Origin: Verrucomicrobiota bacterium
Lineage (GTDB): Bacteria; Verrucomicrobiota; Verrucomicrobiia; Limisphaerales; UBA11358
Length of the DNA: 64,000 bases
Assembly: GCA_049523555.1 (NCBI GenBank)
Contig: JBEKMU010000001.1
Location: forward strand, 226 to 64,225
Reading direction: 5' to 3'
Shown: positions 10,553-44,656 of the stretch, piece after piece
Layout: the number at the start of each line of letters is the position of its first letter
Position numbering within the stretch: position 1 is the first letter of the stretch
The notes under the pieces: generated by a model
What the model saw: the letters and a program-made list of their open reading frames with translations, nothing else
Told to the model about the DNA's origin: nothing
Database searches by the model: none
Made by a program: the position numbers and the translations under genes

Positions 10553-10750
10553 TTTTTCGCTCCGCGAAAAATGCCGCGCACCGTAGCGCAAAGCGCGCAG
10601 GCGGGCGATCGAGCGTATGCTGGGAAGCGGCTGTGGTGAGCTTCGACCCGGCAAGCCACCCTCGAGCTGTTAAAATCCCTGTCTCAAACCGCGCAAAATT
10701 CTCAAAGGATTGGTCGTTTTTGGTTGTCCTACTTGGTAAAATGATGCCGC

Positions 10751-14900: not shown

Positions 14901-15972
14901 GACTTTGTTTGAGGGGCCGGACCATTCGCTGCGGGCTCGCACCTCAAGTAAAATTTTCACTTGGGCAGGCAACGATTGGCGTGAAGATTCCGGCGCACCA
15001 CCCGCCTTGTCCCGGTATGAAATCCGGCAAGAAAATGGTGCGGCAAAGGATGCATATAACGCCGCCTTGCTTTGCTTTTCCCGCGATTTGCCTCTGCCCC
15101 AAAAAATATTTTTAAAATTCGCTCCCGCCGATGCGAAAATTCCCGCTTGGGTTTTTCCCACCACCAACCTTCTGTTATTCGGTCCGGAAACTTCGCGCTT
15201 CGAGGGCTTAAATGACCGCAAGGCAGGTGTTTGGTTGATGCCTGTTTCCCAACTTGATTCTGCAATCGCTGCACAAAAACAAATCCAACTTGAACAAAAG
15301 GCACAGGCGGTTGCCGCAGCGGGACAAGCCCAAAAAAATCTTCTGGCGAAATACGACCGAAACCACAACGGCATCATTGATCAAGACGAAAGAGAAGAGG
15401 CGCTGGATGATCCGGCCTTCATTGAGTCTGAATTGGACACGATTGACGCCAATCATAATAATCGGCTTGACCCCGAGGAACTTGTCTATTTCGACGCCAA
15501 CCAGGACAAAATTTTAGAACCAAAGGAACAGGCCGGGATTGATATCGCACAACACCTGCTGACAGCAAAACTCTTGAAGCAATTCGATGTCAATGGCGAT
15601 AACCTTCTCGATCGGAATGAATTTGACGGTTTACTGCAATCTGGCGTGAGCGCCAAGATGTCATCCAGTCTTGATTTCTTACTCTCAGATGCAAATCACG
15701 ACGGGTCCATTGATCCTGGGGAACTTGAATCGTTCTTGAAGCAGCAATTACGCAGGGAACTTCAAGCGCGCGGAGTGCCGACCGCAGCCCTTTTTAACCA
15801 GATGAGGGTTGAGGCGAACAAGACCACTGACCCCCGGCAATTATTCAAGGAAGCTGTGGAATTTTACTGGCAGATTCCCGGTAGTATCACCAATAAACCG
15901 CCATTCAACAGAAGGATTCCACCCGGCAGTGGTCTTGTTACCAATGGGATGCACAGCGGCGTAACTCAATGA
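11911..15972 (+). CDS. Giant secreted protein (1353 aa): N-terminal CsgG/LpoB-like module, central possible beta-propeller region, C-terminal array of 5 EF-hand Ca-binding loops
   Basis: Signal peptide MKKLLGALAFVILAARLSAQ. N-module pattern ...LHLLERNEVEKVYREQALSAAN...LGRILGADGLLLFDV... C-terminal loops are DRNHNGIIDQDE, DANHNNRLDPEE, DANQDKILEPKE, DVNGDNLLDRNE and DANHDGSIDPGE. Confidence 0.6.
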   Translation: MKKLLGALAFVILAARLSAQSNEPVRLALISESDEASVASDVLTAQLSGNEKLHLLERNEVEKVYREQALSAANKDYLKLGRILGADGLLLFDVVRTPQTTNLTARLIAVKPGVVLTDGSFSWPLKDTMQWAESVTTYLNSFLPKLTLTAKDAIPLSVVNLRSAVQSAEAQETERQLKLLAIQRLSQEHQFFVLERQRMQLLSEEKDLKSDESAFWDGSYLLEGVVDQNGYSKDTITIDARLTPPKGSAPLLFEVSGSRTNYAEVINRLAVKVTELLKVNSVVKEWNAADEAQQYFDEAKWALRWGAFREAQAAAESAWALGKRDMECATVRIESYAVPPNTGGYQKGEYTSRRNTNEIIQTVVEEAAPDRLWGLTWNEQDYNGTKVVQYVSVGRLPDPKSIDLATHALQLYYDFSQTLPAGELKAGSAWYRLGVEDLTVASQVLQHFYFVPESQEPAAERLVQLRSLARSVAGWISESPSVHDSYFVGDRIATHDELAHTIEESPNIFSCEVKWGCFWQERPEDCTALYRELMSSPVFCYIHKDFWLRDLPTPRLVAWDENDRKRIPMVWSNFGRELAASTNVLLQLEDKALMLADADSEKKMGAAFANFFNSVFENRDALVANHVEVLYLNWGADDLVSAKTSGGIVTDTKDSLQHLFYSEYRPKLEAMDQEYRGKAVPAGQILSTFEKQKQYLKDNRPHDFLEFAHTFLIGEPNYSKAQALEIQPLLAAYKSNLVAQSRNASGMQKGELMSAIAQVGFVENGLNRTLNPPAPRLQQPAQTRTPKPAPVTKAVVAAAVPTPAPEIVTNVIVVSKYLAIPGERLINLDSSEHIWYLWGTITAHHWYDGRLLLDYEYSAATQWLDEKGNVTGGRNVSGPAIAILDPATEHWDVIGCPEADIQSQNNFYHRSALLHGELFTCDGGQIKKYDFQNRQWMILKISNGNNYELFAVNGHLYAASSDMIFEILDGGKSTQILASTRRNPPASTLDREDLGTPTLFEGPDHSLRARTSSKIFTWAGNDWREDSGAPPALSRYEIRQENGAAKDAYNAALLCFSRDLPLPQKIFLKFAPADAKIPAWVFPTTNLLLFGPETSRFEGLNDRKAGVWLMPVSQLDSAIAAQKQIQLEQKAQAVAAAGQAQKNLLAKYDRNHNGIIDQDEREEALDDPAFIESELDTIDANHNNRLDPEELVYFDANQDKILEPKEQAGIDIAQHLLTAKLLKQFDVNGDNLLDRNEFDGLLQSGVSAKMSSSLDFLLSDANHDGSIDPGELESFLKQQLRRELQARGVPTAALFNQMRVEANKTTDPRQLFKEAVEFYWQIPGSITNKPPFNRRIPPGSGLVTNGMHSGVTQ

Positions 15973-16000
15973 ACCTATCCACTCTAATGCTGACACGAAA

Positions 16001-26776: not shown

Positions 26777-26832
26777 GATTAACGCAAAGGCGCCAAGGCG
26801 CTAAGCCGCCAGGAGAAAACAATCCTCAATTG

Positions 26833-26864
26833 CTTTGCGCCTTTGCATCTTTGCGTCTTTGCGT
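26833..26864. repeat. Four tandem octamers CTTTGCGC/CTTTGCAT/CTTTGCGT/CTTTGCGT in the thrS leader, forming the right arm of an imperfect inverted repeat with 26779-26801
   Basis: Read directly. TTAACGCAAAG (26779-26789) is complementary to CTTTGCGTTAA (26857-26867). The array ends 12 nt before the thrS ATG. Confidence 0.75.
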
Positions 26865-26876
26865 TAAAAGAAAGCC

Positions 26877-28994
26877 ATGGAATCCGAACGCAAAACTCTG
26901 GATGACCGCGCGAAAATGTCCGAGCTGGAGCGCATCCGGCACTCGTGCGCCCACGTCATGGCCACGGCCATTGCCAAACTCTGGCCGGACGCCCAGTTCG
27001 CCTCCGGCCCGGCGGTCGAAAACGGATTTTACTACGACGTCGAACTCGCCCACCGTATCTCGCCCGAAGATTTCCCGAAAATCGAGGAGGAGATGAAAAA
27101 GGAAATCAAGGCGAACCACACTTTTGAGAAAATCGTCGTCTCGCGCGAACAGGCGTTGGCGGATGCTCACCGGGGACGCCTTGGCGCATTGGCCGACCGC
27201 CAAGTCCCGAGCAAATTCAAGATTGGGAACCTTGCCGACATTCCCGAAGGTGAGCCAATCACCTACTACAAAAGCGGCGACTTCATTGATCTTTGCGCCG
27301 GGCCGCACGTGCTGCGCACCGGCAACATCGGCGCGTGCAAGCTCACGACCGTGGCCAGCACCTATTACAAGGGCGACGAGCGCAATCCGCAGCTCCAGCG
27401 CATCTACGGCACCGCGTTCAAGAACAAGACCCAGCTCGACGAGTATTTCAAAATGGTCGAAGAGGCCAAGCGCCGCGACCATCGCAAGATCGGGCAGGAA
27501 ATGGGCCTGTTCGCGATTGACACTGAATACGTCGGTCCCGGTCTGCCGCTCTGGTTGCCCAAAGGAACAGCGATTGTGGAGGAACTGGAAAAGCTAGCAA
27601 AGGAAACCGAATTTGCCGTCGGCTACGTGCGCGTAAAGACACCGCATATCGCTAAGGAGAAAATGTACCTTACCAGTGGGCACCTGCCGATTCTCTACAA
27701 GGAATCGATGTTCCCGCCGATGACACTTCGACAGCAATTTAGTGAAGCCCGTGAAGAAGATCGGATAAGAATCCAAGGCAAGATTCGGCTCTTGGAACAC
27801 AAAATTCAAGAACACTGCTTCGACGACCCGAAAGTGACTCAAATTCGACAGATGCGCGGTGAAGAACGTGGTTCAAGCGAAAATCAGTTTGCGGTCGTCG
27901 AGGAGTTGCTAACAAGCTGGAGAAAAAATCCTTCCGCAGTTCCGGATGCAAAAATGAGAATATTAGCGGAAGAATTGCACCAACTTGATGGGCAACTCAA
28001 AGAACTTCGTAAGAAGCTTGAGGAACATTATTACCTCAAAGCCATGAACTGCCCGCATCATCACCGCATTTTTGCGGCTGAGCCGCGCAGTTACCGCGAT
28101 CTCCCGTTGCGTCTGGCTGAATACGGCACCAACTATCGTTACGAGCAGTCGGGCGAGTTGTTCGGCCTGATGCGTGTCCGCTCGCTGAACATGAATGACG
28201 CGCATATTTATTGCACGCCGGAGCAATTCGCCGCCGAATTCAATGCGGTGAACGATTTGTACCTGAAATACTTTAAGATATTTGCTATCGACAAATACGT
28301 GATGCGCTTCAGCACGCACGATCCGTCCCGTCTCACCGGCGACAACGCCAAATTCGTCAACGAACCGGAGCTGTGGAAGCAGACCGAAGACATGGTCCGC
28401 AAGACACTCATTGATTCGAAGATCCCGTACGTGGAAGTGCCGAACGAAGCGGCGTTTTACGGCCCGAAGATTGACGTGCAGGTCTGGAGCGTCATTGGCC
28501 GCGAATTCACGCTGGCGACCAACCAGGTGGATTTCGCCGTGCCTAAGCGCTTCGGCTTGGTCTATCGCGACAGGGACAACACGGACAAGACGCCGTTGTG
28601 CATCCATCGCGCGCCGCTCGGCACGCACGAGCGGTTCATCGGCTTTCTCATCGAGCATTACGCCGGCAATTTCCCGCTCTGGCTCGCGCCCGAACAGGTC
28701 CGCGTGCTCACCATCGGCGAGGAGGAACCGCTCGTGGATTACGCGAAGAAAATCACGGCTGAGTTGCGGGCGAACATGGTCCGCGCCGAGGGCGATTACG
28801 GCACCGACAAGATCAACGGCAAAATCCAGCGCGCGGAAGAGGCGAAAGTGCACACGATGCTCGTCATCGGCCCGCGCGACCTGCAAGCCGGGAACGTGAG
28901 CGTTCGTCTGCACGGCAAAGGCAACCTCGGCGCGAAACCGAAGGCAGAGGTGATTGCCCGAATTTTGACGGCGATTCAGGAACGACAGACGTGA
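26877..28994 (+). CDS. thrS: Threonine--tRNA ligase; lacks the N-terminal TGS domain and carries an insertion of about 100 aa in the catalytic core
   Basis: Editing/SAD motifs (RHSCAHVMA, GDFIDLCAGPHV). Class II core ([64 protein letters not shown]). Anticodon-binding tail. Confidence 0.9.
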   Translation: MESERKTLDDRAKMSELERIRHSCAHVMATAIAKLWPDAQFASGPAVENGFYYDVELAHRISPEDFPKIEEEMKKEIKANHTFEKIVVSREQALADAHRGRLGALADRQVPSKFKIGNLADIPEGEPITYYKSGDFIDLCAGPHVLRTGNIGACKLTTVASTYYKGDERNPQLQRIYGTAFKNKTQLDEYFKMVEEAKRRDHRKIGQEMGLFAIDTEYVGPGLPLWLPKGTAIVEELEKLAKETEFAVGYVRVKTPHIAKEKMYLTSGHLPILYKESMFPPMTLRQQFSEAREEDRIRIQGKIRLLEHKIQEHCFDDPKVTQIRQMRGEERGSSENQFAVVEELLTSWRKNPSAVPDAKMRILAEELHQLDGQLKELRKKLEEHYYLKAMNCPHHHRIFAAEPRSYRDLPLRLAEYGTNYRYEQSGELFGLMRVRSLNMNDAHIYCTPEQFAAEFNAVNDLYLKYFKIFAIDKYVMRFSTHDPSRLTGDNAKFVNEPELWKQTEDMVRKTLIDSKIPYVEVPNEAAFYGPKIDVQVWSVIGREFTLATNQVDFAVPKRFGLVYRDRDNTDKTPLCIHRAPLGTHERFIGFLIEHYAGNFPLWLAPEQVRVLTIGEEEPLVDYAKKITAELRANMVRAEGDYGTDKINGKIQRAEEAKVHTMLVIGPRDLQAGNVSVRLHGKGNLGAKPKAEVIARILTAIQERQT

Positions 28995-29066
28995 AGACAA
29001 AGCAGGCATCTTGTGCACCTCACCTGCTGGTGGCCCTCTGCCAGGAGTCAGACGTCCCGCCCGAGG

Positions 29067-31004
29067 CTACTTTTTCAAACGAAAGAAATTGGCCCCGCCG
29101 GAAATCGGGTTCGTAACCGTGAATTGAAGATTCACAACCACCGGGATATTCGTCAGCGTGATCCAGGAATTCGGGTTGGCGAGATTGGTGGTGGTTTGCA
29201 GACTGAAATTCTGCGCCGAGGGCGGCCATGAAAGGGTGATGTTGGTTCCCGAAAGGTTCACCTGCAAAGTGGGGGCCTGCGAAACAGGCGAGACAACCAG
29301 TGCCATACTATGATACCCGCCCGCGGCGATGGCCAAGACGATGCTTAAACCGCCCGGCACCGTGCTTTGGCCAGCAGAATTGTCTCCCCAAGCCACGACG
29401 GTCCCGTCGGACTTGAGCGCCAAACTGTGTGCCCATCCCCCACCGATGGCCAGGACGTTGCTTAAACCGCCCGGCACCGTGCTTTGGCCAGCAGAGTTGT
29501 CTCCCCAGGCCACGACGGTTCCATCGGACTTGAGCGCCAGACTGTGTGCCCATCCCGCGGCGATGGCCACGACGTTGTTCAGACCGCCCGGCACCAAGCA
29601 TTGGCCATAATAGTCGTCTCCCCAGGCTACGACGGTCTCGTCGGACTTGAGCGCCAGACTATGTGTCCATCCCGCGGCGATGGCCACGGCGTTGCTTAAA
29701 CCGATCGGCACCGTGCATTGGCCAGAATAGTTGTATCCCCAAGCTACGACGGTCCCGTCGGACTGGAGCGCCAGACTGTGATACCCTCCCGCGGCGATGG
29801 CCACGACTTTGCTCAAACCGCCCGGCACCGTGCATTGGCCAGAGGAGTTGTCTCCCCAAGCCACGACGGTCCCGTCGGACTGGAGCGCCAAACTGTGATA
29901 CCCTCCTGCGGCGATGGCCACGACGTTGCTTAAACCAATCGGCACCGTGCTTTGGCCATAATTGTTGTTTCCCCATCCCCAAGCCACGACGGTTCTATCG
30001 GACTTGAGCGCCAGACTGTGATACGCTCCCGCGGCCATGGCCACGACGTTGCTTAAACCAATCGGCACCGTGATTTGGCCATAATTGTTGTCTCCCCAAG
30101 CCATGACGGTTCCATCGGACTGGAGTGCCAAACTGTGATACGCTCCCGCGGCCATGGCCACGACGTTGCTCAGACCGCCCGGCACCGTGCATTGGCCAGC
30201 AGAGTTGTCTCCCCAGGCCACGATGGTCCCGTCGGACTGTAGCGCCAGACTGTGATAATCGCCCGCGGCGATGGTCTCGACGTTGCTCAAACCACTCGGC
30301 ACCGTGCTTTGACCAGCAGAGTTGTCTCCCCAGGCCGCGACGGTCCCGTCGGAATTGAGTGCCAAACTGTGATTCCCTCCCGCGGCGATGGCCACGACGT
30401 CGCTTAAACCACCCGGCACCGTGCTTTGGCCGGCAGAGTTGTTTCCCCAAGCTACGACGGTTCCATCGGACTTGAGCGCCAGACTGTGATAATCGCCCGC
30501 GGCGATGGTCTCGACGTTGCTCAAACCACCCGGCACCGTGCTTTGGCCAGCAGAGTTGTTTCCCCAAGCCACGACGGTTCCATCGGACTTGAGCGCCAGA
30601 CTGTGATACCCTCCCGCGGCGATGGCCACGACGTTGCTCAAACCGCCCGGCACCGTGCTTTGGCCATAATTGTTGTCTCCCCAAGCCACGACGGTTCCGT
30701 CGGACTTGAGCGCCAAACTGTGATACTCTCCCGCGGCGATGGCCACGACGTTGCTTAAACCGCCTGGCACCATACTTTGGCCTTCATAATTACGTCCCCA
30801 CGCCACGACGGTCCCGCCGGGCTTGAGCGCCAAACTGTGATACCCTCCCGCGGCGATGGCCTTAAAGCGGGTGCCGGGCTGAACCACGGGCATCGCTTGG
30901 TCTCCCCACGAAGCAACACTCCCGGTTTGCGTCGCCTTGGCTGGATGTGACACAAGGAATGCCGCTCCGCACGCCATTACAAGATTGAACATCTTCCGCT
31001 TCAT
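29067..31004 (-). CDS. Secreted RCC1/BLIP-II repeat protein with a C-terminal beta-sandwich-like tail
   Basis: ATG at 31004 (MKRKMFNLVMACGAAFLVSHPAKA) is preferred. About a dozen or more tandem repeats of the pattern ..VVAIAAGGYHSLALKSDGTVVAWGDNSAGQSTVPGGLSN.., typical of RCC1 blades. Confidence 0.8.
   Translation of the reverse strand: MKRKMFNLVMACGAAFLVSHPAKATQTGSVASWGDQAMPVVQPGTRFKAIAAGGYHSLALKPGGTVVAWGRNYEGQSMVPGGLSNVVAIAAGEYHSLALKSDGTVVAWGDNNYGQSTVPGGLSNVVAIAAGGYHSLALKSDGTVVAWGNNSAGQSTVPGGLSNVETIAAGDYHSLALKSDGTVVAWGNNSAGQSTVPGGLSDVVAIAAGGNHSLALNSDGTVAAWGDNSAGQSTVPSGLSNVETIAAGDYHSLALQSDGTIVAWGDNSAGQCTVPGGLSNVVAMAAGAYHSLALQSDGTVMAWGDNNYGQITVPIGLSNVVAMAAGAYHSLALKSDRTVVAWGWGNNNYGQSTVPIGLSNVVAIAAGGYHSLALQSDGTVVAWGDNSSGQCTVPGGLSKVVAIAAGGYHSLALQSDGTVVAWGYNYSGQCTVPIGLSNAVAIAAGWTHSLALKSDETVVAWGDDYYGQCLVPGGLNNVVAIAAGWAHSLALKSDGTVVAWGDNSAGQSTVPGGLSNVLAIGGGWAHSLALKSDGTVVAWGDNSAGQSTVPGGLSIVLAIAAGGYHSMALVVSPVSQAPTLQVNLSGTNITLSWPPSAQNFSLQTTTNLANPNSWITLTNIPVVVNLQFTVTNPISGGANFFRLKK
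29290..30880. repeat. Tandem array of highly similar repeat units of about 150 nt, encoding the RCC1 blades
   Basis: The same nucleotide strings (e.g. ccgcccggcaccgtgctttggccagcaga, gtcccgtcggacttgagcgccaaactgtg) recur with regular spacing along the gene. Confidence 0.8.
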
Positions 31005-31342
31005 GGTCTTCGGCTTCCCGGCTAATTTACGCGTCCCGGGCTGAAGTGATCCGATTCTATCAAAAGCCAGCCGGTCGTGCAAGGGATGTTTGCTTTATTC
31101 CAAGGTGCAGAGGCGGCCTTCGTTTCCGGAGGCAGCTTGGGGGTATTCAAATTTTCGTTTTACGTCGGTAGCGGCGTTGGTGTTGGTGCTTTCGCTTTGG
31201 CTTTTGCGCCGCCGGAGTCTAAGACAGTACGGAAATTGTTTGGCAGATGCGGCAAGTTGAAGTTTCCGTATGGCGGGTTGATTGGCAGGCTTGCCAGCGA
31301 TTGAGCCTGTTGGGCCGGATTGGACGGGATTGTTTTCATTCA

Positions 31343-31922
31343 GCCATGAACTGCCCGCATCATCACCGCATTTTTGCGGCCGAGCCGCGCAGTTATCGCA
31401 ACTTGCCGTTGCGGCTGGCGGAATACGGCACCAACTATCGCTACGAGCAGGCCGGCGGGTTGTTCGGTCCTCATGCGCGTGCGGTCGCTCAACATGAACG
31501 ACGCGCACATCTATTGCACGCCGGAGCAGTTCGCGCAGGAGTTCAACGCGGCGAACGAGCGGTTCATCGGCTTTTTAATCGAGCATTACGCCGGCAATTT
31601 CCCGCTCTGGCTCGCGCCCGAGCAGGTGCGCGTCCTCACCATCGGCGAGGAGGAGCCGCTCGTGGATTACGCGAAGAAAATCGTGGCCGAGTTGCGCGCG
31701 AACATGGTTCGCGCCGAAGCCGACTACGGCACCGACAAAATCAACGGCAAAATCCAGCGCGCGGAAGAGGCGAAAGTACACACCATGCTCGTCATCAGCC
31801 CGCGCGACTTGCAGGCCGGGAACGTGAGCGTTCGTCTGCACGGCAAAGGCAACCTCGGCGCGAAGCCGAAGGTAGAATTCATTGCTGACATTTTGCGGGC
31901 GATTAAAGAGCGGCGGGCGTAA
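31343..31922 (+). pseudogene. thrS: Truncated, frameshifted duplicate of the thrS 3' part, corresponding to thrS from nt 28041 to the stop
   Basis: [37 protein letters not shown] is in one frame. A 1-nt indel then shifts the frame to [21 protein letters not shown]... About 0.38 kb is missing (joins ...FNAANE to [17 protein letters not shown]...). It ends ...[26 protein letters not shown]. Confidence 0.85.
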
Positions 31923-31931
31923 GTTGTGGAG

Positions 31932-31987
31932 CGCGGAGCATCTCCGCGTATATGAAAGGCCAGGAACTCGCGGAGCAATACTCCGCG
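31932..31987 (+). repeat. Two hairpins with the same 7-bp stem CGCGGAG/CTCCGCG directly after the thrS pseudogene stop
   Basis: cgcggag-cat-ctccgcg (31932-31948) and cgcggag-caata-ctccgcg (31969-31987). No U-tract, so a terminator function is uncertain. Confidence 0.4.
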
Positions 31988-32082
31988 CCTCCCGTCCGCC
32001 TCCTTGACAAAGGCAACGTTGACGCGACCCTGAAGGCGGGAGTAATTCCAGAAATCGTTTCGGTGGTCCGGCATAGAAGTGT

Positions 32083-32646
32083 GTGAACGTATTCTTTCAA
32101 AAAATTCCCGGCTTTTTCACCGGCTGGTTCGGTGATGGTCCGTGGCGTTCCAAATCCGTTCTCGCCGCGTTTGCCGTGGTCTTGGTCGGCCTGGGGTTTT
32201 GGTGTTCTGACATCAAAAACGGTCCGCCGCAAAAAGAAATGGACAACGCGGCGGCCAACGCATCAGGCATCACGCCGCCCAACGCCGCAGGCGCCGTGGC
32301 CAGCTCGCACTGGAATTGGGGCAAACCATTCCCCGGTTACGTGCGGATGGGCGCGAGTTATGTGGCAGGATTTTGCATCGGCTGGTTTTTCCGAAAGGTG
32401 ACGCGGTTGGTCTGGGTTGTTGCCGCACTGCTCATCGCGTTGCTCGCGTTTGGGAAATACGTTGGCTGCGACACGACACACACGCAGGAGCAAGTGAAAC
32501 GCAGCGGCGAGTGGGTGCAGCACGAGGCGATGGCAACAAAGGATTATCTCAAGCATGTGCTGCCGTCGGCTACGGCGGGTGGTGTCGGAACTTTTCTGGG
32601 CTTCCGACGCCGAAGCAAAGTGGGCGCGTCAAAAGCGGTAGCTTGA
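32083..32646 (+). CDS. Small membrane protein (possibly FUN14-like)
   Basis: 187 aa with several hydrophobic segments. GASYVAGFCIGWFFRKVTRLVWVVAALLIALLAFGKYVG resembles the FUN14 pattern. Weak call. Confidence 0.4.
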   Translation: MNVFFQKIPGFFTGWFGDGPWRSKSVLAAFAVVLVGLGFWCSDIKNGPPQKEMDNAAANASGITPPNAAGAVASSHWNWGKPFPGYVRMGASYVAGFCIGWFFRKVTRLVWVVAALLIALLAFGKYVGCDTTHTQEQVKRSGEWVQHEAMATKDYLKHVLPSATAGGVGTFLGFRRRSKVGASKAVA

Positions 32647-32662
32647 GAGTGCTTTCCTAAGA

Positions 32663-32746
32663 GGCGAACAAGGCTGTGCCGGTGCGAAGCCGAGGGCGGA
32701 AGTCATCGCGGACATTTTGCTGGCAATCAGGGAGGGGCGAGCTTAA
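32663..32746 (+). pseudogene. Short remnant of the thrS 3' end (third copy)
   Basis: Translates as ...GAKPRAEVIADILLAIREGRA*, versus thrS ...GAKPKAEVIARILTAIQERQT*. Same orientation, with the stop in the equivalent position. Begins 17 nt after the stop of the 32083-32646 gene. Confidence 0.7.
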
Positions 32747-32838
32747 ATATGCAGGCCATGAGTTGACGTGTTAAAAGGCGCAGCACGGAGAATTGAGGTG
32801 CTGTGTTTGACTGACAAACAATCGCAGGGAAAACCGAC

Positions 32839-33684
32839 ATGGAAATTAAAAAAACCGTCATTACCGCTGCCGGACAAAACCAGCGCACGCTGCCGTTGCA
32901 AACCCTCGTGGATGGCAATGGCCAGACCAAATCCGCCCTGGCCATCATTGTCGAAGAATCCCTTCAGGCCGGCATCGAGGAGATTTGTGTCATCATCAGC
33001 CCCGGTGACCAGGATGCCTACCGGGCCGCCGCCGGGCCGCATGGCCGGCTGTTGAAATTCGTCGAGCAAACCCGGCCGCTCGGCTATGGTCACGCCGTCT
33101 GGTGCGCGCGGGAGTTCACCGGTTCATCACCGTTCCTGCTGCTGGTGGGAGATCACCTCTACCTCAGCCGGAACGCGAAGCGCTGCGCACAGCAACTGGT
33201 CGAAACGGCCGCCGCCGAAGCCTGCACCGTCTCCGCCGTGCAGGCCACGCACGAAAGCAAGCTGCCTTACTACGGCGCAGTGGGGGGCCGGCTGGCCGGA
33301 GCGCGCAAGGGGATTTATATCGTGTCGGACGTGATGGAAAAACCCACGCCCACCGAGGCCGAGCAGAAGCTCATCGTGCCCGGCTTGCGCGTCGGCTACT
33401 ACCTCTGTTTCTTTGGCATGCACGTCCTGACGCCACGGGTGATGGCGTTGCTTGAAGAGGACGTGGCCGCAGCCGGCAAAAATGGGCGGGTGCATTTGAG
33501 CGCGGCGTTGTCGCGGCTCGCGGAGCACGAACGGTATCTGGCGTGTGAACTGGAAGGCCGCCGTTTCGACATAGGTGTGCAATACGGCTTGTTGACCGCG
33601 CAACTCGCGCTGGCGCTCAACGGCAAGGACCGCGACGAAGTTCTTTCCGGCCTCGTCGAGTTGCTGGCGCTGGGCGGCAAGTGA
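32839..33684 (+). CDS. Sugar-1-phosphate nucleotidyltransferase (GalU/UTP-glucose-1-phosphate uridylyltransferase-like)
   Basis: [18 protein letters not shown] at the position of the G-x-G-T-R-x-LP-x-TK motif. Also [22 protein letters not shown] and LLLVGDHLY. Confidence 0.65.
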
Positions 33685-33725
33685 TTATTCATCGCTCCTA
33701 AACCCAATCATTTTCGTTTTTTTCC

Positions 33726-37045
<3,320 letters not shown>

Positions 37046-37061
<16 letters not shown>

Positions 37062-37115
37062 AACCGAAGGCGGAAGTCATCCCGGATATTTTGGATGTGA
37101 TCAACGAGCGGCGTT
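37046..37115 (+). pseudogene. Short remnant of the thrS 3' end (fourth copy; stop lost)
   Basis: Translates as GNLGVKPKAEVIPDILDVINERRS, versus thr[25 protein letters not shown]. Confidence 0.7.
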
Positions 37116-37179
37116 CTTGGCGCCGACGATCCGGCTGTCAATCCTAGCAGCCAGCAAAACGTACATGAAATATAGCCAG

Positions 37180-38067
37180 TTAGCCTGGCCCCGGTGATGA
37201 AATTGTTGTGGGTGGAGGGAGCGTGTAAACCGGCGCAGTTCCGGGAAAGAAAGAATCAAGATTCGTGAACACCAATGGCTTTCGCAGGATATATTTTGGA
37301 TCTTCAACACGCAGTTGCAGCAATGTCTTCGTCGGTGTAAAAACTCTTACTGAAGCCACACCGCTATGTATCACTGAAGCCACATCATTGCTCATCTCAT
37401 AACCTCTGCGCTTCCAAGAGACAAAATAGATCGGCACGAATTTCCCGCGAGGCGAATGAACGTAGCTGTCGTCAGGCTTAACAGTAACCTGACTATCCCG
37501 ATTGATTGCCTTCACATCCATCGAAACGGCCGCCAGCCATTGAGTTGCCAATTGGTAAGCTTGGTTGGTATTCATGCGGCTGACCGGCCATGTGTATGAA
37601 TCCTGATACCTATAACAGTCTTCCGTCTGGTGCGTCCCTTCCAGATAGGAAAACCTGTTGCCTTGGGAAACATAATAACAATACTTTTTCGTGGTAATGC
37701 TTCCGATGCTCTTGTTAACGTAGTTGTATCCAAACGGGGTGACCACTGCTTCGACTAAATTCGATTCTGTGATCGGCAACTCGCCCGGTAATTGTAGTTC
37801 TTTTGCTACCCGATTGGCCTCCTGCAAAACCAGCTTAAAAGCCGCTTCCTGATATTGCCTGGTTGTGAAACTGTGGTCCAACCATACAACATTTCCATTG
37901 GTATCAACCATTCTTGGCACGCCGGCTGGAAGTTCTCGTCCCTTCGGATCATCCGGAAAAAGAGGCTTCGGGCCACCGGACGAAGGTTCTTGCGCCGCCG
38001 CATCAAATAAAACGACTAGAGCGCAGATAATGAGCAATGATTTAGCAAATGAATTGTTGGCTTTCAT
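37180..38067 (-). CDS. Hypothetical secreted protein in a visibly AT-richer segment
   Basis: N-terminal hydrophobic signal (SLLIICALVVLFDAAAQ). No recognisable motif. Composition differs from the neighbouring genes. Confidence 0.5.
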   Translation of the reverse strand: MKANNSFAKSLLIICALVVLFDAAAQEPSSGGPKPLFPDDPKGRELPAGVPRMVDTNGNVVWLDHSFTTRQYQEAAFKLVLQEANRVAKELQLPGELPITESNLVEAVVTPFGYNYVNKSIGSITTKKYCYYVSQGNRFSYLEGTHQTEDCYRYQDSYTWPVSRMNTNQAYQLATQWLAAVSMDVKAINRDSQVTVKPDDSYVHSPRGKFVPIYFVSWKRRGYEMSNDVASVIHSGVASVRVFTPTKTLLQLRVEDPKYILRKPLVFTNLDSFFPGTAPVYTLPPPTTISSPGPG

Positions 38068-38143
38068 AAAAATATGCACTGCTCGGTGTTAGTAGAAGCG
38101 ACATAGCGATTATCTTGGTTAGCGGTGCAATCTCAACATCCGG

Positions 38144-38908
38144 TCAGTGGAACAGCAATTTCGTTTCTTTTCCGTTAATGGTCAGCACTACCCAGCCATC
38201 ACCCAGTTCCTTGAAACGTACGGAAACCAAGCCGTCGGACGTTTGCGTCAAGGCCGATTCGCCGAGCGAAATAGTATAGGTCCGCTTTCCGGTTTGAATG
38301 GTCACCGCCGATTTGGAGGCGTTTTGGGAAACGCCTTTGACGGAAAAAAGGTTGGTCGCCGCTTCGACTGGTTTTGCCGGGCCCTTTTGCACTGCTGAAT
38401 TGGTGGACGCGCTGGGAGCCGGCGGCTGCGTGTTTTGAACCGGCTGATTTGTTTTGATGGCAGTTTGAGAAACTTTGTTTGTTGCCTGCAGTTGCGGCTG
38501 CGGCGGTTGCTGCGTGACGGTTTCAAATTCTTCGGGCGCTCCGGCAGATGGCCGCAAATCGCCCATGAGCGCCCCGATGAGCCAGAGGTTCATGCCAAAC
38601 CTGAGCGCACCGCCCACGCAGATGGTGAAAATTACGTCCACCTGGTCCGCCTGGGTGACTTTGCGGATGCACACAAACAACACGACAACAAAGACCGGAG
38701 CAGAAATGTAAACAGAAAAAGGCCCGAACCAGCGTCCCAGGATCAGGTTCAGGATGGTGTCCAGACCGCACGCGAGGGCGGCTGAGCCCAGCAGCCCGGG
38801 GAAATTGTAATCGAGCTTTTGGAGCTTGATCATGATCCAGAGCGCCACGGTCAGAAAGACCGTTTGCACGCCAAACTCGATAAAAAAAAACAGGATGTTG
38901 AGAAGCAT
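38144..38908 (-). CDS. Hypothetical membrane protein (4 TM N-domain, Pro/Gln-rich linker, small beta-rich C-domain)
   Basis: Hydrophobic N-terminal half (MLLNILFFFIEFGVQTVFLTVALWIMI...), a low-complexity linker, and a C-terminal segment ...VTIQTGKRTYTISLGESALTQTSDGLVSVRFKELGDGWVVLTINGKETKLLF. Confidence 0.5.
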   Translation of the reverse strand: MLLNILFFFIEFGVQTVFLTVALWIMIKLQKLDYNFPGLLGSAALACGLDTILNLILGRWFGPFSVYISAPVFVVVLFVCIRKVTQADQVDVIFTICVGGALRFGMNLWLIGALMGDLRPSAGAPEEFETVTQQPPQPQLQATNKVSQTAIKTNQPVQNTQPPAPSASTNSAVQKGPAKPVEAATNLFSVKGVSQNASKSAVTIQTGKRTYTISLGESALTQTSDGLVSVRFKELGDGWVVLTINGKETKLLFH

Positions 38909-39244
38909 TCGGCTGATTCATATTGGAGCGCGTCCGAGAGGTCAATGCTGTTTGCATGGCAGGGCGACCCCGGCAAAAAAGGGATTGTGTTTCCGGTCCG
39001 GAGCGGTAAAATTAGGCGAAGTTTTACTTTGTAGTCGTTTTCTTTAAGATTGCCGAGGGGCGGGTTTTGGGTTTCATTTTGCCCGTTTCCGTTGTAGAAA
39101 CCGTCGGACGCGATTGAACCTGTTTTCGAACATGAGCCGGCTGGCCCGGGGCGGAGTTGGTCAGCGCACCCTCCCCGAAGGTTGCCACGTCGCCACAACC
39201 AACCTTCGACCCGTCAACCGCCGAATTGAGAAAGGCCGACCGCT

Positions 39245-40801
39245 ATGAAAATATTCCTCATTTACGTCAATGATGAGAATTTCTACCGGTTGCTGCCGGA
39301 AGATTTGGGCGGCTCAAAGCCGGGCGACCCGCGCGTCAAGGTGATGGGATTCCCTCCACTGGGCATCGAGACGCTCGCGCCCGTCCTGCGCCAGCACGGC
39401 CATCAGGTCCGGATGTTCGACACTTGCCACCCGGAGATGAAGGAGCCGGACATCGCGCAAGCCTTGCGCGATGACCCGCCGGACGTCGTGGCCCTCTCGT
39501 TTCTGTCCACGACGACTTATCCCGGAGTGAAGAGCATGGCGCGGGTGGTCAAGTCCGAGATGCCGAAAGTTCCGATCATCTGCGGTGGCGTTTTTGCCAC
39601 GATGAACCAGGAGCGGATTCTGAAGGATTGTCCTTATATTGACGCCGTGGGCGTGGGTGAAGGCGAGGAGCTGTTGCCGGATTATCTGGATCATCTCGAC
39701 CGGCCGGCGAAAGTCGCCGGTCTCATCTGGCGCAACGGCGGGGAAATCGTCAAGAACATCGCCCGCCCGATCATCAAGGATTTGAACCGGTTCCCATATC
39801 CCGACCGAACGACGCTGCCGATTGATTACATTGAATCGTTGCCGCTCGACGTGCCGGCGGTTCTTTCGCTGGAAAAATTCTGCACGATGCAGACTTCGCG
39901 GGGTTGCCCTTACACCTGCATTTATTGCGACATTCCCGCGCTGACCAACGGCAAGTGGCGTTTCCGTTCTCCAGAGCATGTTTTGGGCGAAATGCAGCAG
40001 CTCCATGACCAGGGTTACCGCTCGATTTATCTGACCGACGATCATTTCCTGCTGAAACGGGACCGCATCAATGAGATTTGCCAGAACATCATTGACCACA
40101 AACTGGCGTTCAAGTGGGGTTGTGAAGGCCGGGTGGATTCGGTGGCGGTGGATCAACTTCCCATCATGGGCGAGGCGAACTGCAATTTTTTGGCGTTTGG
40201 CGTCGAATCCGGAACGCAAAAGATTCTGGACCGGCTCGACAAGCGACAGACGCTCGAGCAAATCGAACACGCGATCAGCGAAGCCAAGCGCTGCGGCATC
40301 GAACGGGCGCATGGATTTTTCCTGGTCGGCTCGCCCGGGGAAACCGAGGAGGACATCCTGGAAAGCTTCCGTTTCTGCGCCCGGCTCAAGCTGGACACGT
40401 TCGGCTTCAACCGGCTGTGCGTTTATCGCGGCACGCCGCTGTGGCACGAGTATCTCGAACGCGGCATCCTCGACGACGAGCGCGACTGGGCCAAGTGGTT
40501 CAAGTGCTCGGACATTGACCCGACGGTTCTGCCCAGCGAGGTGGTCAACCGCGCGCGGCAGAAAGGCTACGCGTTGCTTTTTGCCCGGCGGATTTTCTTC
40601 CGCCCCATCCAGACCTTTAAGCTGCTCCGCACCCTGGGCCGGCACATGAAGTTCACCGACATTCTCCGGCTGTTGAGCAGTCCGTTCCGAAGACGAAAGC
40701 TGAATCGAAAACCGGAACTGCCCGCCCGGATGATCGAACTGGGATTGACGGCGCCCATCCGCACCGCCACACCAGTGGACGCCCCGGCGGCCCCCGCGTG
40801 A
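39245..40801 (+). CDS. B12-binding-domain radical SAM protein
   Basis: N-terminal cobalamin-binding-like Rossmann region (VVALSFLSTTTY...PIICGGVFAT). Radical SAM cluster motif SRGCPYTCIYCD (CxxxCxxC). Confidence 0.8.
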   Translation: MKIFLIYVNDENFYRLLPEDLGGSKPGDPRVKVMGFPPLGIETLAPVLRQHGHQVRMFDTCHPEMKEPDIAQALRDDPPDVVALSFLSTTTYPGVKSMARVVKSEMPKVPIICGGVFATMNQERILKDCPYIDAVGVGEGEELLPDYLDHLDRPAKVAGLIWRNGGEIVKNIARPIIKDLNRFPYPDRTTLPIDYIESLPLDVPAVLSLEKFCTMQTSRGCPYTCIYCDIPALTNGKWRFRSPEHVLGEMQQLHDQGYRSIYLTDDHFLLKRDRINEICQNIIDHKLAFKWGCEGRVDSVAVDQLPIMGEANCNFLAFGVESGTQKILDRLDKRQTLEQIEHAISEAKRCGIERAHGFFLVGSPGETEEDILESFRFCARLKLDTFGFNRLCVYRGTPLWHEYLERGILDDERDWAKWFKCSDIDPTVLPSEVVNRARQKGYALLFARRIFFRPIQTFKLLRTLGRHMKFTDILRLLSSPFRRRKLNRKPELPARMIELGLTAPIRTATPVDAPAAPA

Positions 40802-40804
40802 CAC

Positions 40805-40894
40805 GACCCCTGCAGTTCGTGGGTAATGTTGAGCGAAACCGAAGACGGAAGCGTTTGCGGATATTTGGCAAACGCTTAGAAAGCAACGGGCGTA
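40805..40894 (+). pseudogene. Short remnant of the thrS 3' end (fifth copy, with an internal deletion)
   Basis: cctgcagttcgtgggtaatgttgagcg aligns to thrS cctgcaagccgggaacgtgagcg. This is followed by AKPKTEAFADIWQTLRKQRA*, versus AKPKAEVIARILTAIQERQT*. Begins 4 nt after the rSAM stop. Confidence 0.65.
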
Positions 40895-40903
40895 AACGGT
40901 GCT

Positions 40904-43900
40904 TTATTCCCCGCTGCCGTTGTATCCGTTTTTGCGTTCCCAGCGGCGCGGTTGCCGTTCGGGCGGCGAGGTGTCCACTTTCGCGTAGTAAGTTTCCTCG
41001 CCAAACGATTTGTTGGCTGCCTGCTCCAACTCGATGGACGGTGTGACGCTGAATCGTTCGTTTGTGTCCATGAAAATGACCCCGCCGCCGGGACGCAGAA
41101 AGCTCAGCAGCAACGGGCATTTGCCGGGGTGCGCTGCGACCAGTTCGCGCACGGATTCGAGTTGTTCGGGCTTCAAATGCGCGGTGTGCAGGCGCAAATG
41201 CACCTGTTTGGTAAAACGTTTCGGCGCGTCCTCCAGCGGCAAAATTTCCTGTGGAAAAATTTTCGGCTTTTCGTCGCCGGTGTTTACTTCGCCGATGACA
41301 AGGATGGCGCGGTTCGGCTTGAGCAACTCGCGGTATTTCTCGTAATTCTCGTTCATGCAGAGTACCTGCACGGAGCCTTCCAAATCTTCGAGCATGACCA
41401 TCGAATATGGCTTGCCGCTCTTTTTCGACACGCCGTTTTGCACCGCGGCAATCAATCCGCCGATGCGCGTGAGGCTGCGATTTGGCAATTCCGCGAGCTT
41501 GGCAGTGTTGGTCAGTGCATATTTTTCGAGAATCGGCGCGAACGGCGTCAGCGGATGGCCGGTGACGTAAAAACCAAGCAATTCCTTTTCATGCGCGAGC
41601 AGTTCGTGCTGCGGCCATTCGGGCAGGTTGCTGATGGATTCCGGCATTGGCGGGGCCTTTTCCTCCAACACACCGAACAGCGAACTTTGTCCCTTCTGCC
41701 TGTCGGAAAGGATGCTTGCCGCGCGGGCCAGTGTGCGTTCGATCTGCGCGAACAACGTGGCGCGCGTCTGTCCGAAACCATCGCACGCGCCGGATTTGAT
41801 GAGCGCTTCGAGAATTTTCCGGTTCACCGTGCGGCCGTCCACGCGCTCGCATAAATCCGAGAGCGAAGAAAACTTTCCATGTTCTTTTCGCGCCTTTAGG
41901 ATGGTTTCCACCGCGACTTCGCCGACGCCTTTGATGGCGGCCAGGCCGAAACGGATGCCGCCTGTAGGACAGGCATCCTGCCGGTTTCTAATTTCTTTGT
42001 TTTCAGATGGAGACAGGCTGGAAGCCTGTCCTACGTTCTTGCGTTCCGCCGGCGCAAAATAAACCTGGCTTTCGTTCACATCCGGCGCCAGGACTTCGAT
42101 GCCGAACTCGCGCGCCTCGTTGATGTATTGACTCAACTTGACGGTGTCCGCCATGTCGTTGGTCATCATCGCGCAGAAAAATTCGACCGGATAGTTCGCC
42201 TTCAGATAGGCGGTTTGATACGCGACGATGGCGTAGGCGGCGGCGTGCGATTTGTTGAAGCCGTAACCCGCAAATTTTTCCAGCAAATCGAAAATCTCGT
42301 TCGCCTTTTTTTCGGGAATCTGGTTTTTCTCCTTGCAACCCTTGACGAAAACAGCACGTTGCTTGGCCATTTCCTCCCGCTTTTTCTTGCCCATGGCGCG
42401 CCGGAGCAAATCCGCGCCGCCGAGCGTGTAACCCGCCAGCACCTGCGCGGCCTGCATCACCTGCTCCTGGTAAATCAGAATACCGTAAGTCTCGCGGGCA
42501 ATCGGTTCGAGCAGCGGATGCTCATATTCAATTTTTACCTCGCCGTGGCGGCGGCGGATGAATTCAGGAATCAGCTCCATCGGACCGGGCCGGTAAAGCG
42601 CCACCAGCGCGGTAATGTGTTCGATGGAACTGATTTGGAATTTCCGGCACAAATCGCGCATCCCGCCGGATTCCAACTGGAACACGCCGAGCGTTTCCGC
42701 GCGATTAAGCAGGTCGTAGGTTTTTTGATCGTCGAGCGGCAAATGATCAATCGGCACTTCGATGTCGTGCGTGCGTCTGACCATTTCGCACGTGTTGCGG
42801 ATGACCGTGAGCGTTTTCAGGCCGAGAAAATCCATTTTCAACAGGCCGAGGTCGCCGACGGGGTTCATGGCGTATTGCGTGACGAGCGTGCCGCTTTCGT
42901 CCTGCTTGAGCGGGAGCAGATTCACGAGCGGCTGGTCGCCGATGACGACGCCCGCGGCATGCACGCTCGCGTTGCGCGCGAGGTCTTCGAGTACGAGCGC
43001 CGTGTCAATGAGTTCATGCGTGACGTCCTCGCTCCCGTAGGCTTCCTTGAGTTCCGGCGATTGTTTGAGCGCCTTTTCCAGCGTCATCTTCAAATCGAAC
43101 GGAATCATCTTGGCCAGCCGGTCGCATTCGCCGTAGCTCAAGCCCATCACGCGGCCCACGTCTCGCACCACGCTTTTCGCGCCCATCGTGCCGAAGGTAA
43201 TGATTTGGGCGACGGAATCGCGCCCGTATTTCTCGCGGACATATTCGATGACGTCCGCGCGGCGGTCGTCGGCAAAATCAATGTCAATGTCCGGCGGGCT
43301 GACGCGTTCGGGATTGAGGAACCGTTCGAACAGCAGGCCGTAGCGAATCGGGTCCACGTTTGAAATCTCCAGCAGGTAAGTGACAATCGAACCGGCCGCC
43401 GAACCACGCGCCACACAGGCGATCCCACGCTCGTGCCCGTAACGGATGAAATCGCCGACGATGAGGAAATAGGAAATGAACCCGGTCTTTTCGATGACCG
43501 TGAGTTCCAGTTTCAAACGATCAATGACCGTCTTGATGGCAGTAGCAACGGCAGGATCGTTCAATGTAGGACCGGCATCTTGCCTGTCTCCGTTTTTTTC
43601 TTTTGAAGTTTGAGACAGGCTGGAAGCCTGTCCGACGTTGTAAGTGGGCAAGCGCTTCGGGTCGTCAATGCCTTCGACGATGAATTCCTTCCCCTCGGCC
43701 TTGGCGTGAATCGTGTAGCGGCGGAACAACCCTTCAGCCAGCCATTGCCGCAGGTAACCTTCGCGCGTGAAATGTTCCGGCGGATGGAACACCGGATAAT
43801 GCAATTTGCCGAACTCGATTTCCAAATTGCATTTGTCGGCGATTTCCAGCGTGTTCTTCACCGCTTCGGGTGTCTCGGCGAAGCGCGCCTTCATTTCCTC

Positions 43901-44656
43901 CGCCGGGCGCAGGTAAAACTGCTCCGGTTCGTAACGCAGCCGTTTCGTGTCGGCGAGCTGCGTCTGCGTGCCGATGCAAATCAGGCAATCGTGCGCGTGC
44001 GAATGGCTTTTCTCGATGTAATGAACGTCGTTCGTCGCCACGAGCTTGAGGCCAAATTCCTTCGCCCACTGGATTAAATGGCGGTTCACCTTGGCCTGTT
44101 CCGCGATGCCGTGGTTTTGCAGTTCGAGGTAAAAATTGTCCGCGCCAAGCGTTTGCCTGAACCAGTCCACCGTGTCGCGCGCCTTTTGAATTTGGTCCTT
44201 CAAAATCCATTCCGGAATCTCGCTGGCAAGGCAGCCGGACATTGCAATCAAACCCTCCTTGTGTGCGGCGAGAAGCTCCTTGTCTATGCGCGGCTTGTAA
44301 TAATAGCCGGTGAGATGCGCCTCGGTGGTGAGCTGGATGAGATTTTTGTAGCCGGTCGCGTCCCGGGCCAGCAGGCCGAGATGGTGATAAACATCACGTC
44401 CGCCGCTGCTGGTTTTCTTCTCCAGCCGGCTGCCCGGCGCGACATAAACCTCGCAGCCGATGATGGGTTTGATGCCTTTTTCGCGCGCGGCCTGGTAAAA
44501 ATCAATCGCGCCGTAGAGCACGCCGTGGTCGGTGATGGCGAGCGCGGGGAATTTCAATTCATGGGCCTTGTCCACCAGCCGGTCCAGCCGGCAGGCGCCA
44601 TCGAGCAACGAATACTCGGTGTGCAAATGAAGATGAACAAAGTCCGCGTGCGACAT
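40904..44656 (-). CDS. dnaE: DNA polymerase III alpha subunit
   Basis: PHP domain start [21 protein letters not shown], palm/fingers motifs ([31 protein letters not shown]), HhH region [12 protein letters not shown] and a C-terminal OB domain. 1250 aa including two in-frame 25-aa inserts. Confidence 0.95.
41963..42037 (-). repeat. 75-nt palindromic element inserted in frame in dnaE (copy A)
   Basis: Outer arms gtaggacaggc...gcctgtcctac, inner palindrome gacaggctggaagcctgtc. Encodes [25 protein letters not shown] immediately before [13 protein letters not shown]. Confidence 0.8.
43565..43639 (-). repeat. 75-nt palindromic element inserted in frame in dnaE (copy B)
   Basis: The termini are the same as in copy A (tgtaggaccggcatc...gagacaggctggaagcctgtccgacgtt), with a variable centre. 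Encodes [24 protein letters not shown]. Confidence 0.8.

Follow-up and report, generated by a model that had tools for sequence, protein, structure and literature searches.

The interval between thrS, the gene for threonyl-tRNA synthetase (ThrS), and dnaE in a 64-kb stretch of the genome of an uncultured, Limisphaerales-like member of the Verrucomicrobiota (hereafter the window) holds an array of copies of the thrS 3' end with unrelated genes between them. We found that the thrS locus is a real and recurrent accretion hotspot with no identifiable integrase, and we propose that the interval, ~12 kb in size, is probably a flexible genomic island that has grown by homology-driven serial displacement of the thrS 3' end. 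The evidence that carries this proposal comprises the direct repeats of the gene end (hereafter tails), a unit structure of tail plus cargo, the presence or absence of units in relatives with boundaries at the repeats, younger tails that were once coding, a foreign tail on the current thrS, and displaced fragments of varied lengths.

Results

Six copies of the thrS end in the window

With a DNA profile (nhmmer) made solely from the functional thrS tails of relatives, six matches were detected in the window, all on the plus strand and with E-values from 4e-24 to 1.2e-5; the next best match had an E-value of 0.52 (Table 1). A repeat finder returned five copies unprompted (28920-28987, 31848-31915, 32672-32739, 37046-37113 and 40821-40888). 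The remaining one, copy 2b, was found by three independent searches, namely the repeat finder, tblastn and a protein profile made from the last 50 ThrS residues, which was run in six frames against the window and 80 loci. The six copies are 64-580 nt long and lie on the same strand, 3' of the intact thrS. A preliminary description of this stretch had counted five copies and four segments. Its five copies are real, its hand translations were reproduced by tblastn, and the formal profile test bore out the similarity of the short copies to the thrS end; since the copies number six, however, the thrS-dnaE interval has five segments.

The repeat finder also showed copy 2 to be a 580-nt piece of thrS; by tblastn it corresponds to ThrS residues 389-705, its frame shifts by 1 nt at 31468, and ~370 nt are deleted internally. 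Copy 3 begins 17 nt after the FUN14 stop at 32646, and the stop codon of the gene for the 1111-aa protein (37059-37061) lies inside copy 4, both as previously described. Copy 5 ends 10 nt from the dnaE stop codon; its start had been placed at 40805, 4 nt after the stop of the radical SAM gene, but the similarity starts near 40831, ~30 nt after that stop.

Behind thrS the order is the RCC1 gene (minus strand), copy 2, two repetitive extragenic palindromic (REP)-like motifs, copy 2b, the FUN14 gene, copy 3, the NTP-transferase and 1111-aa genes, copy 4, two unannotated open reading frames (ORFs) of lower GC content (minus strand), the B12-binding radical SAM gene, copy 5 and dnaE (minus strand). 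The material between repeats measures 0.07 to 3.7 kb, lies on either strand and can be multi-gene. Because the sequence type of a tail goes with the cargo on its right, as seen when the window is aligned with the related loci L078, L001 and L043, a unit consists of a tail and the cargo to its right, which reverses the cargo-then-tail order assumed earlier.

Some further candidates among the copies were rejected. A seventh tail at 38082-38143 would occupy a position orthologous to that of a clear tail in L163, yet nhmmer gave no support for it. A hairpin in copy 5 (AAGCGTTTGC-9 nt-GCAAACGCTT) was seen by eye only, the other copies appeared by eye to be without it, and we treat it as chance. The idea that copy 5 is the ancestral thrS end against dnaE is plausible and insecure, as L164 has a yebC-like gene between the matching tail and dnaE.

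Table 1 Features of the thrS-dnaE island and its two flanking genes (window coordinates).
Feature	Coordinates	Strand	Evidence and remarks
thrS, intact, 705 aa, anchor gene	26877..28994	+	Pfam tRNA_SAD, tRNA-synt_2b, HGTP_anticodon
Copy 1, working thrS tail	28896-28993	+	nhmmer E = 1.7e-22; last ~72-90 nt swapped in
RCC1-repeat protein, 671 aa, cargo of unit 0	29067..31082	-	Pfam RCC1_2, WD40_RLD
Copy 2, displaced thrS 3' fragment, 580 nt	31342..31922	+	nhmmer 31824-31921, E = 4e-24; protein profile E = 2.4e-26
Two palindromic REP-like motifs	31927..31990 (motifs 31929-31947, 31969-31987)		DNA motif search
Copy 2b, sixth tail, heads FUN14 unit	31992..32085	+	nhmmer E = 1.4e-8; protein profile 31994-32080, E = 0.041
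FUN14-family small membrane protein	32083..32646	+	Pfam FUN14
Copy 3, heads NTP-transferase/1111-aa unit	32663..32746	+	nhmmer 32669-32745, E = 3.8e-13; protein profile E = 5.2e-7
NTP-transferase	32839-33684	+	Pfam/NCBIfam
1111-aa UDPGP/fucokinase-like protein	33726-37061	+	Pfam/NCBIfam
Copy 4, heads unit with AT-rich ORF	37040..37118	+	nhmmer 37045-37118, E = 5.7e-15; protein profile E = 4.1e-7
Two unannotated ORFs	37180-38079, 38144-38908	-	Lower GC; cargo block 37180..40801 has GC 49-56%
B12-binding radical SAM gene	39245-40801	+	Pfam
Copy 5, outermost, most decayed	40831..40894	+	nhmmer E = 1.2e-5; protein profile E = 0.19
dnaE, convergent conserved gene closing the island	40904..44656	-	Pfam

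Units present or absent in relatives, with boundaries at the tails

The preliminary description had proposed, as its own test, that the cassettes should be variably present in relatives with boundaries at the repeats, and DNA alignments revealed five such unit-level differences bounded by tails. In L019 the thrS stop lies ~380 nt from dnaE, with only a naive, not annotated 105-aa ORF between them; L164 agrees with the window in its flanks and in most of its units. A PMT_2 unit stands between two tails of L078 at the place where the window has the single copy 3, whose left flank matches tail A of L078 and whose body and right flank match tail B; a PMT_2 gene is also found 5' of the NTP-transferase unit in L043, and a related junction of the tail/PMT_2 type occurs in L001. 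The window shares the NTP-transferase/1111-aa unit with L078, L043, L162 and L164 (DNA identity to the window 92% for L078, 88% for L164 and 86% for L043), whereas L163, L165, L032 and L169 lack it. The window has the ORF at 37180-38079 together with most of copy 4, whereas the ORF is absent from L164, which keeps ~16 nt of copy 4 after the natural stop of the 1111-aa gene; L078 has the window's copy 4 junction. The block formed by the RCC1 gene, copy 2 and the REP pair occurs only in the window. The RCC1 unit belongs to the window's lineage alone, being found at this position in none of L164, L162 and L078, and a metagenome contig from the JGI with an identical ThrS runs into the RCC1 gene. 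The fifth difference is a yebC-like unit behind the last tail, which only L164 has.

Other parts of the array are widely shared. An orthologous unit of a tail and FUN14 is found in L162, L163, L164, L165 and L078, and FUN14 homologues stand behind thrS in L078, L032, L162-L165 and L169. The pair of the unk254 and radical SAM genes is common to the window, L163 and L164, and in L164 the radical SAM gene is followed by a tail remnant at the position orthologous to that of copy 5. The FUN14 unit is 78% identical to that of L078 and the adjoining NTP-transferase unit 92%, implying that these adjacent units have separate histories. Cargo junctions without any tail were seen in L055, L064 and L013.

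Origin and decay of the tails

Copy 2 and thrS differ in 54 codons, of which 38 are synonymous and 16 non-synonymous (30% non-synonymous), whereas the neutral expectation for this copy is 79% non-synonymous, with a first percentile of 62%. The non-synonymous share is intermediate in copies 3 and 4 (47-53%) and neutral-like in copy 5 (84%, with 3 synonymous and 16 non-synonymous differences from thrS). The mainly synonymous divergence of the younger copies indicates that they are formerly working gene ends. As for the end that works now, thrS is 92-97% identical to its closest relatives, L162-L165, as far as nt ~2025 and then 64-74% over the last 90 nt. The functional tails of L162 and L164 share 82-83% identity with the final 72 nt of copy 2, whereas they share 69-71% with the current tail. 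Thus the tail of copy 2 is native-like and the working tail is the outlier, implying that the native end was displaced and that a foreign tail now ends thrS, which is the outcome predicted by serial displacement. In this respect the footprint is the one suggested at the outset, that of serial additions at thrS in which a new end and new cargo arrive and the old end is displaced.

A larger mosaic of thrS, with 71% identity to L078 in the 5' part and 90% in the 3' part, was also considered and is retracted, because the 5' value is lowered by a hypervariable insert that cannot be aligned; what stands is the swap of the last ~90 nt alone. This insert (window ~27686-28046; nt ~810-1170 of thrS, residues ~270-390) lies between the N-terminal domains and the catalytic core and is 30-50% identical, essentially unalignable, to that of relatives which are 92-97% identical on either side.

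Across loci, many displaced tails are closer to the functional tails of other genomes than to their own, and a minority are nearly identical to the tail of their own gene (97% in L162, 94% in L007 and 93% in L036). A 347-nt unit, made up of a 79-nt thrS tail and a ~70-aa membrane ORF, occurs twice in L162 (2685-3330) with 95% identity and differing spacers, and a third tail and a FUN14 gene come after it; the duplicated unit looks like a fresh event.

The lengths of the displaced fragments vary continuously between 26 and 337 codons, and short tails break at points spread over ~30 nt. Copy 2 and the longest L186 fragment both start where homology resumes after the hypervariable insert. The decay does not strictly increase outward, copy 2b being more decayed than copies 3 and 4, which agrees with insertions, deletions or replacements of units at internal tails and departs from the strict stack, oldest outward, of the preliminary description. 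Old tails decay to noise or shorten, such as the 16-nt remnant in L164 and a half tail in L043, with no sign of site maintenance.

Recurrence of the arrays

Among genome loci in which the thrS end is complete, the protein profile found extra tails in 10 of 63, and among metagenome loci that reach 1.5 kb or more beyond thrS, in 13-14 of 57. Combined, this makes about 23 arrays among 120 related thrS loci, with between one and five extra tails each, every one of them downstream and on the thrS strand: five in L199, three each in L186 and L224, and three plus a marginal one (E = 0.19) in L078. No credible tail was seen upstream or on the opposite strand, and the only minus-strand matches had E-values of 0.65 (L016, downstream) and 22 (L174, upstream). 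The control, 1.1 Mb in 80 loci that surround homologues of the 1111-aa gene, yielded no match with E below 1.

When 2,586 ORFs were scanned generically for downstream duplicates of their last 45 residues, thrS was by far the main case, with ~20-25% of thrS loci affected against a baseline of ~0.5% at other genes. For thiC (L096 17-7594) there are two displaced fragments, both in frame and 370-490 nt long, with ~80% identity in DNA and ~95% in protein and with cargo between. The BRCT end of a ligA-like gene is repeated 670 nt downstream (L113 5040-6000), beside a REP-flanked gene of the REP-associated tyrosine transposase (RAYT) family, and the end of the 1111-aa gene recurs 920 nt downstream in L286 (7995-12299). 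This low-baseline footprint at other genes fits a general recombination process over a thrS-specific enzyme.

The cargo of relatives' arrays includes defence-like or addiction genes (L026 9786-11524; L186, L199 and L224), namely an AAA_15/AAA_21 ATPase with DUF3226, a CAP12/Pycsar TIR effector domain and a PIN/Phd toxin-antitoxin pair; an Eco57I-type methyltransferase is found in L068.

Nucleases and integrases

Pfam identified no integrase, transposase or resolvase among the ~50 sizeable ORFs of the window. There is no tRNA or non-coding RNA target near the array, the sole tRNA of the window (10469-10552) being 18 kb upstream, and no Rfam match near the array. These searches uphold what had been stated from inspection alone.

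The sole recurrent nuclease family in the arrays is RAYT (Y1/HUH), which adjoins the functional thrS end in at least 11 loci (L003, L024, L032, L080, L083, L085, L086, L087, L179, L192 and L228), most of them with a displaced tail on the far side. The relatives' RAYTs pass the NCBIfam model NF047646 with 86-96 bits (cutoff 80), and the window has no RAYT gene. As an exact motif, the REP palindrome CGCGGAGCAnTGCTCCGCG was found only in loci with a thrS-linked RAYT (L003/L082, L080, L083-L087) and in the window; in L003 it flanks the RAYT gene and abuts a displaced tail. The REP pair of the window sits exactly between copies 2 and 2b, implying that the window once had a REP-RAYT-REP unit from which the RAYT gene has since been deleted. 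Repeats beside distant RAYT paralogues were examined as possible duplicated ends of target genes and discarded, since they are mostly REP/REPIN clusters and true displaced ends are near the baseline.

In L080 (9400-16600, within a 4.6-Mb long-read contig) thrS and the neighbouring RAYT gene are both split and partly inverted, with ThrS residues 337-704 at 10001-11080 (plus strand) and residues 4-313 at 15587-16504 (minus strand), and the RAYT halves at 9470-9931 and 11222-11521. Such an arrangement implies an inversion that broke both genes, together with ~4 kb of additional DNA, and could be real or an assembly error.

Other features of the window

The best matches of ThrS are 78-84% identical in GTDB representatives and 80-82% in JGI metagenomes. 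No strain variants were found by an exact ThrS lookup, which returned one 18-kb JGI contig with an identical ThrS, ending in RCC1 repeats. The RCC1 gene contains 12-14 tandem units of 117 nt (29268-30860) with a DNA identity of 62-88%, mostly 74-88%, and these probably explain the end of that short-read contig. The two unannotated ORFs behind copy 4 were considered as hidden recombinases and rejected, having no Pfam or NCBIfam match and no similarity to Y1 proteins; they look like secreted or membrane proteins.

A 31-nt inverted repeat (26779-26867), 81% complementary and with a 27-nt loop, lies in the 100-nt gap just 5' of the thrS start. It may act as a leader or in regulation, and no Rfam family matched it. 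On the minus strand, dnaE contains two palindromic repeats of ~75 nt (41957-42031 and 43562-43633; arms GTAGGACAGGC.../...GCCTGTCCTAC) that are inserted in frame and add 24-25 residues each (GQASSLS...RQDAxPT). They are absent from dnaE of L019 and L013, and we take them to resemble the in-frame palindromic element insertions of Rickettsia.

Discussion

Growth of the island by displacement

Serial displacement would begin with the entry of DNA from a related lineage, carrying the 3' part of its own thrS plus whatever stood downstream. This DNA would recombine with the resident thrS via the common coding sequence, either through a single Campbell-type crossover of a circularised fragment or through one homologous crossover and an illegitimate join (homology-facilitated illegitimate recombination, HFIR). 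As a result, thrS would stay intact with the incoming tail at its end and the incoming cargo behind, and the resident's former 3' end would be moved downstream as a silent fragment, taking the older units along. Repeated events would produce an array of tail-plus-cargo units, whose tails, acting as portable homology, would then allow deletion of units, internal insertion and exchange among relatives. No dedicated recombinase would be necessary. The pathway may be recombination of the RecA type, run through a circular intermediate or be HFIR, and the features of the array fit either variant of the insertion. The preference for thrS may reflect its conserved coding sequence before a non-operonic gap, self-reinforcement by the tails and the inheritance of old arrays. 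The varied lengths, the scattered breakpoints, the decaying tails and the lack of an integrase, both in the window and among the families listed for ~25 arrays, fit homology-driven insertion; thus, of the two mechanisms suggested in the preliminary description, the Campbell-type crossover fits better, and the site-specific recombinase is kept as a minority rival.

Several points weigh against this proposal. No circle or crossover was observed directly, and thrS is hit ~50 times more often than other genes, which a general process alone leaves unexplained. Tails of 70-80 nt with 60-85% identity are poor substrates for RecA-type recombination, and exchange via such short tails would have to be mostly between close relatives. 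Although short tails break at scattered points, many of these points gather at the 5' edge of a conserved block, GGCGCGAAGCCGAAGG, and this clustering could mark a recognition site. No displaced ends were found at dnaE, for which only ~7 loci are informative. The relatives are metagenome-assembled genome (MAG) or metagenome contigs taken with 10 kb on either side and naive ORF calls. The finding that Pfam showed no tyrosine or serine integrase and no DDE transposase in ~70 cargo ORFs of ~25 arrays speaks for the proposal, but it holds for the families listed, which in one Pfam scan of the relatives' cargo were the best 25 of 41, with 16 low-ranking ones outside.

Alternative explanations

The specificity of the hotspot for thrS, seen in the rates given above, would be explained by a site-specific recombinase, encoded elsewhere in the genome or since lost, that uses the end of thrS as an att-like site whose core lies near GGCAAAGGCAAC..GGCGCGAAGCCGAAGG. 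Integrative elements or circular cassettes bringing a replacement thrS end would then enter at thrS and at its displaced copies, in the manner of integrons, of clusters of attC sites without an integrase (CALINs) and of tandem tRNA-gene islands. The short-tail breakpoints fall within ~30 nt just 5' of a highly conserved block and units seem to be cleanly inserted or deleted at internal tails, both of which agree with this idea, and so does the replacement-end design itself: an element-borne replacement of a gene 3' end is the classic design of gene-end integrators such as phage 21 and e14 at icd and the tRNA-gene islands. We nevertheless regard such a recombinase as rather unlikely, because the fragment lengths are continuous with no single breakpoint, the old tails are decayed or shortened without upkeep of a site, some cargo junctions are tail-free and like footprints occur at thiC, ligA and other genes. 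Moreover, neither the window nor the arrays in the cargo scan revealed an integrase, resolvase or DDE enzyme among the families listed, and virus contigs, searched in IMG/VR only, carried no thrS tail by protein or DNA pattern. That the tails are no passive scars but working recombination sites of an integron-like cassette platform with an essential gene as its anchor, served by a recombinase elsewhere or by RAYT, seems to us slightly less likely still; if true, Verrucomicrobiota would possess a gene-capture system of a new class.

Another candidate is the RAYT beside thrS, which might drive the hotspot by mobilising cassettes or by nicking REP hairpins and so causing recombinogenic breaks at the thrS end. 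It is the only recurrent nuclease in the arrays, stands directly beside the functional thrS end and passes the family cutoff; two lineages, 40-50% identical, occupy the same position with a divergence that does not track that of thrS, the gene is found in either orientation (L192), the window retains its REP pair between copies 2 and 2b, and paralogues are also present in the thiC and ligA arrays. On the other hand, RAYT is missing within 10 kb of the largest arrays (window, L078, L199, L186, L224 and L162), REPs are missing from most unit junctions, and the RAYT unit is bracketed by tails like other cargo and was in the window pushed outward by the RCC1 unit. Paralogues are generally REP-flanked without duplicated gene ends, and their loci, which were chosen for containing RAYT, show a near-baseline rate of displaced ends. 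The literature describes RAYTs as single-copy, inherited vertically and mobilising REPINs, not genes. We therefore count RAYT among the cargo, allowing it at most to cause breaks locally, and regard a direct role in driving the hotspot as quite improbable. As for duplication in situ, in which thrS 3' ends are duplicated locally in tandem, decay and receive unrelated insertions with no horizontal transfer, it could account for the minority of tails that are near-identical to their own gene and for the two 95%-identical units in tandem in L162. In L162, however, the spacers differ after each unit, which does not fit a simple tandem duplication; the divergence of copy 2 is mostly synonymous and hence arose at a time when both sequences worked as genes, the current tail is an outlier among close relatives and the displaced one native-like, many tails are nearer to functional tails of other genomes, and adjacent units differ in their identity to L078. 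This explanation is very improbable, being already largely refuted by the synonymous/non-synonymous ratio and the cross-genome affinities of the tails.

Significance

If the island grew by serial displacement, a flexible island can grow without an integrase, phage or transposon, with the conserved end of an essential gene as the landing pad. Addition of genes, as opposed to mere swapping, at integrase-free hotspots is poorly documented outside toxin loci. Each unit carries a thrS fragment that would be a phylogenetic barcode of the donor or the previous resident, so that the transfer history may be read at the locus and each unit dated and sourced. Together with the frequency of the arrays in a poorly known phylum and their anchoring at an essential gene, this is where we see their interest. 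With about one in five thrS loci affected (~23 of 120, from uncultured Verrucomicrobiota of soil, peat and freshwater), a population-scale study is feasible in existing long-read metagenomes. The arrays also break short-read assemblies and make thrS pseudogene fragments, which may mislead annotation and marker-based estimates of MAG quality.

Comparison with known systems

A literature search for thrS as an integration site returned nothing relevant. The array resembles integrons and CALINs in its ordered cassettes split by a recurring sequence on a fixed platform, and in those systems too the integrase gene is not always nearby. However, the thrS repeat is a directly repeated fragment of a coding gene and does not look from its sequence like a structured attC palindrome. 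Integron cassettes are mostly promoterless single genes in one orientation, whereas those behind thrS can hold several genes, lie on either strand and have their own intergenic regions, and there is no intI gene; the thrS array is not an integron. A likeness to RAYT/REPIN systems lies in the recurrence of a REP-flanked RAYT at thrS in relatives and in the REP remnant of the window, but RAYTs are known to move REPINs, not gene cassettes, and here RAYT is one cargo among many.

Gene-end integrators include phage 21 and e14 at icd, tRNA-gene islands and tycheposons. In these the incoming 3' end keeps the target intact, as is also found here, thrS being intact with its tail swapped; moreover, the old end becomes a direct repeat on the far side, and reuse of the site leads to tandem arrays with degenerate repeats. 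The thrS array is like them in outcome only and differs in that no integrase, whose gene in such elements usually adjoins one att site, was seen in the window or, among the families listed, in the arrays examined, and no virus contig with a thrS tail was found in IMG/VR. Its repeats are also not uniform and have no common crossover core, the short ones breaking over ~30 nt and others 50-337 codons upstream of the stop.

The arrays left by C-terminal displacement at rhs, to which the orphan cdiA-CT/cdiI and rhs-CT modules are related, offer a further comparison. In rhs, partial cores of varied length stand as direct repeats behind an intact gene, ends gained by lateral transfer displace the resident ones, and the mechanism proposed is homologous recombination by way of circular intermediates (Jackson et al. 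2009, PMC2935791). The thrS array shares with it an array of same-strand direct repeats that are 3' fragments of varying length, startless, silent and decaying although once functional, incoming lateral ends that push the incumbent downstream, and the lack of an integrase. It does not share the toxin tip and immunity gene, as the thrS repeat is the conserved anticodon-binding domain of threonyl-tRNA synthetase. Whereas rhs is a polymorphic toxin gene with a conserved core followed by a variable toxic tip, the anchor here is an essential housekeeping gene whose conserved end is itself repeated, the cargo consists of unrelated accessory genes instead of toxin tips and immunity genes, and there is no evident selection for keeping the old ends.

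Similarly, the effector-immunity modules of Vibrio cholerae's type VI secretion system (T6SS) undergo sequential displacement, for which homology-facilitated illegitimate recombination was proposed; the authors drew the parallel to integrons, noted the absence of an integrase, and described later exchange of the arrays by ordinary homologous recombination (Kirchberger et al. 2017, PMC5361080). Both arrays are additive, with the newest module beside a conserved upstream anchor and the displaced 3' ends kept. Retention in the T6SS arrays is explained by selection for orphan immunity genes, whereas the array described here is anchored at thrS and its cargo is heterogeneous (sugar-nucleotide enzymes, a radical SAM protein, an RCC1-repeat protein, defence-like genes and RAYT). 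The earlier impression that this is an undescribed accretion system therefore holds in part: the footprint and the mechanism have been proposed before for the rhs and T6SS arrays, and what is new is the anchor, an essential aminoacyl-tRNA synthetase gene, together with the unrelated cargo that accumulates behind it.

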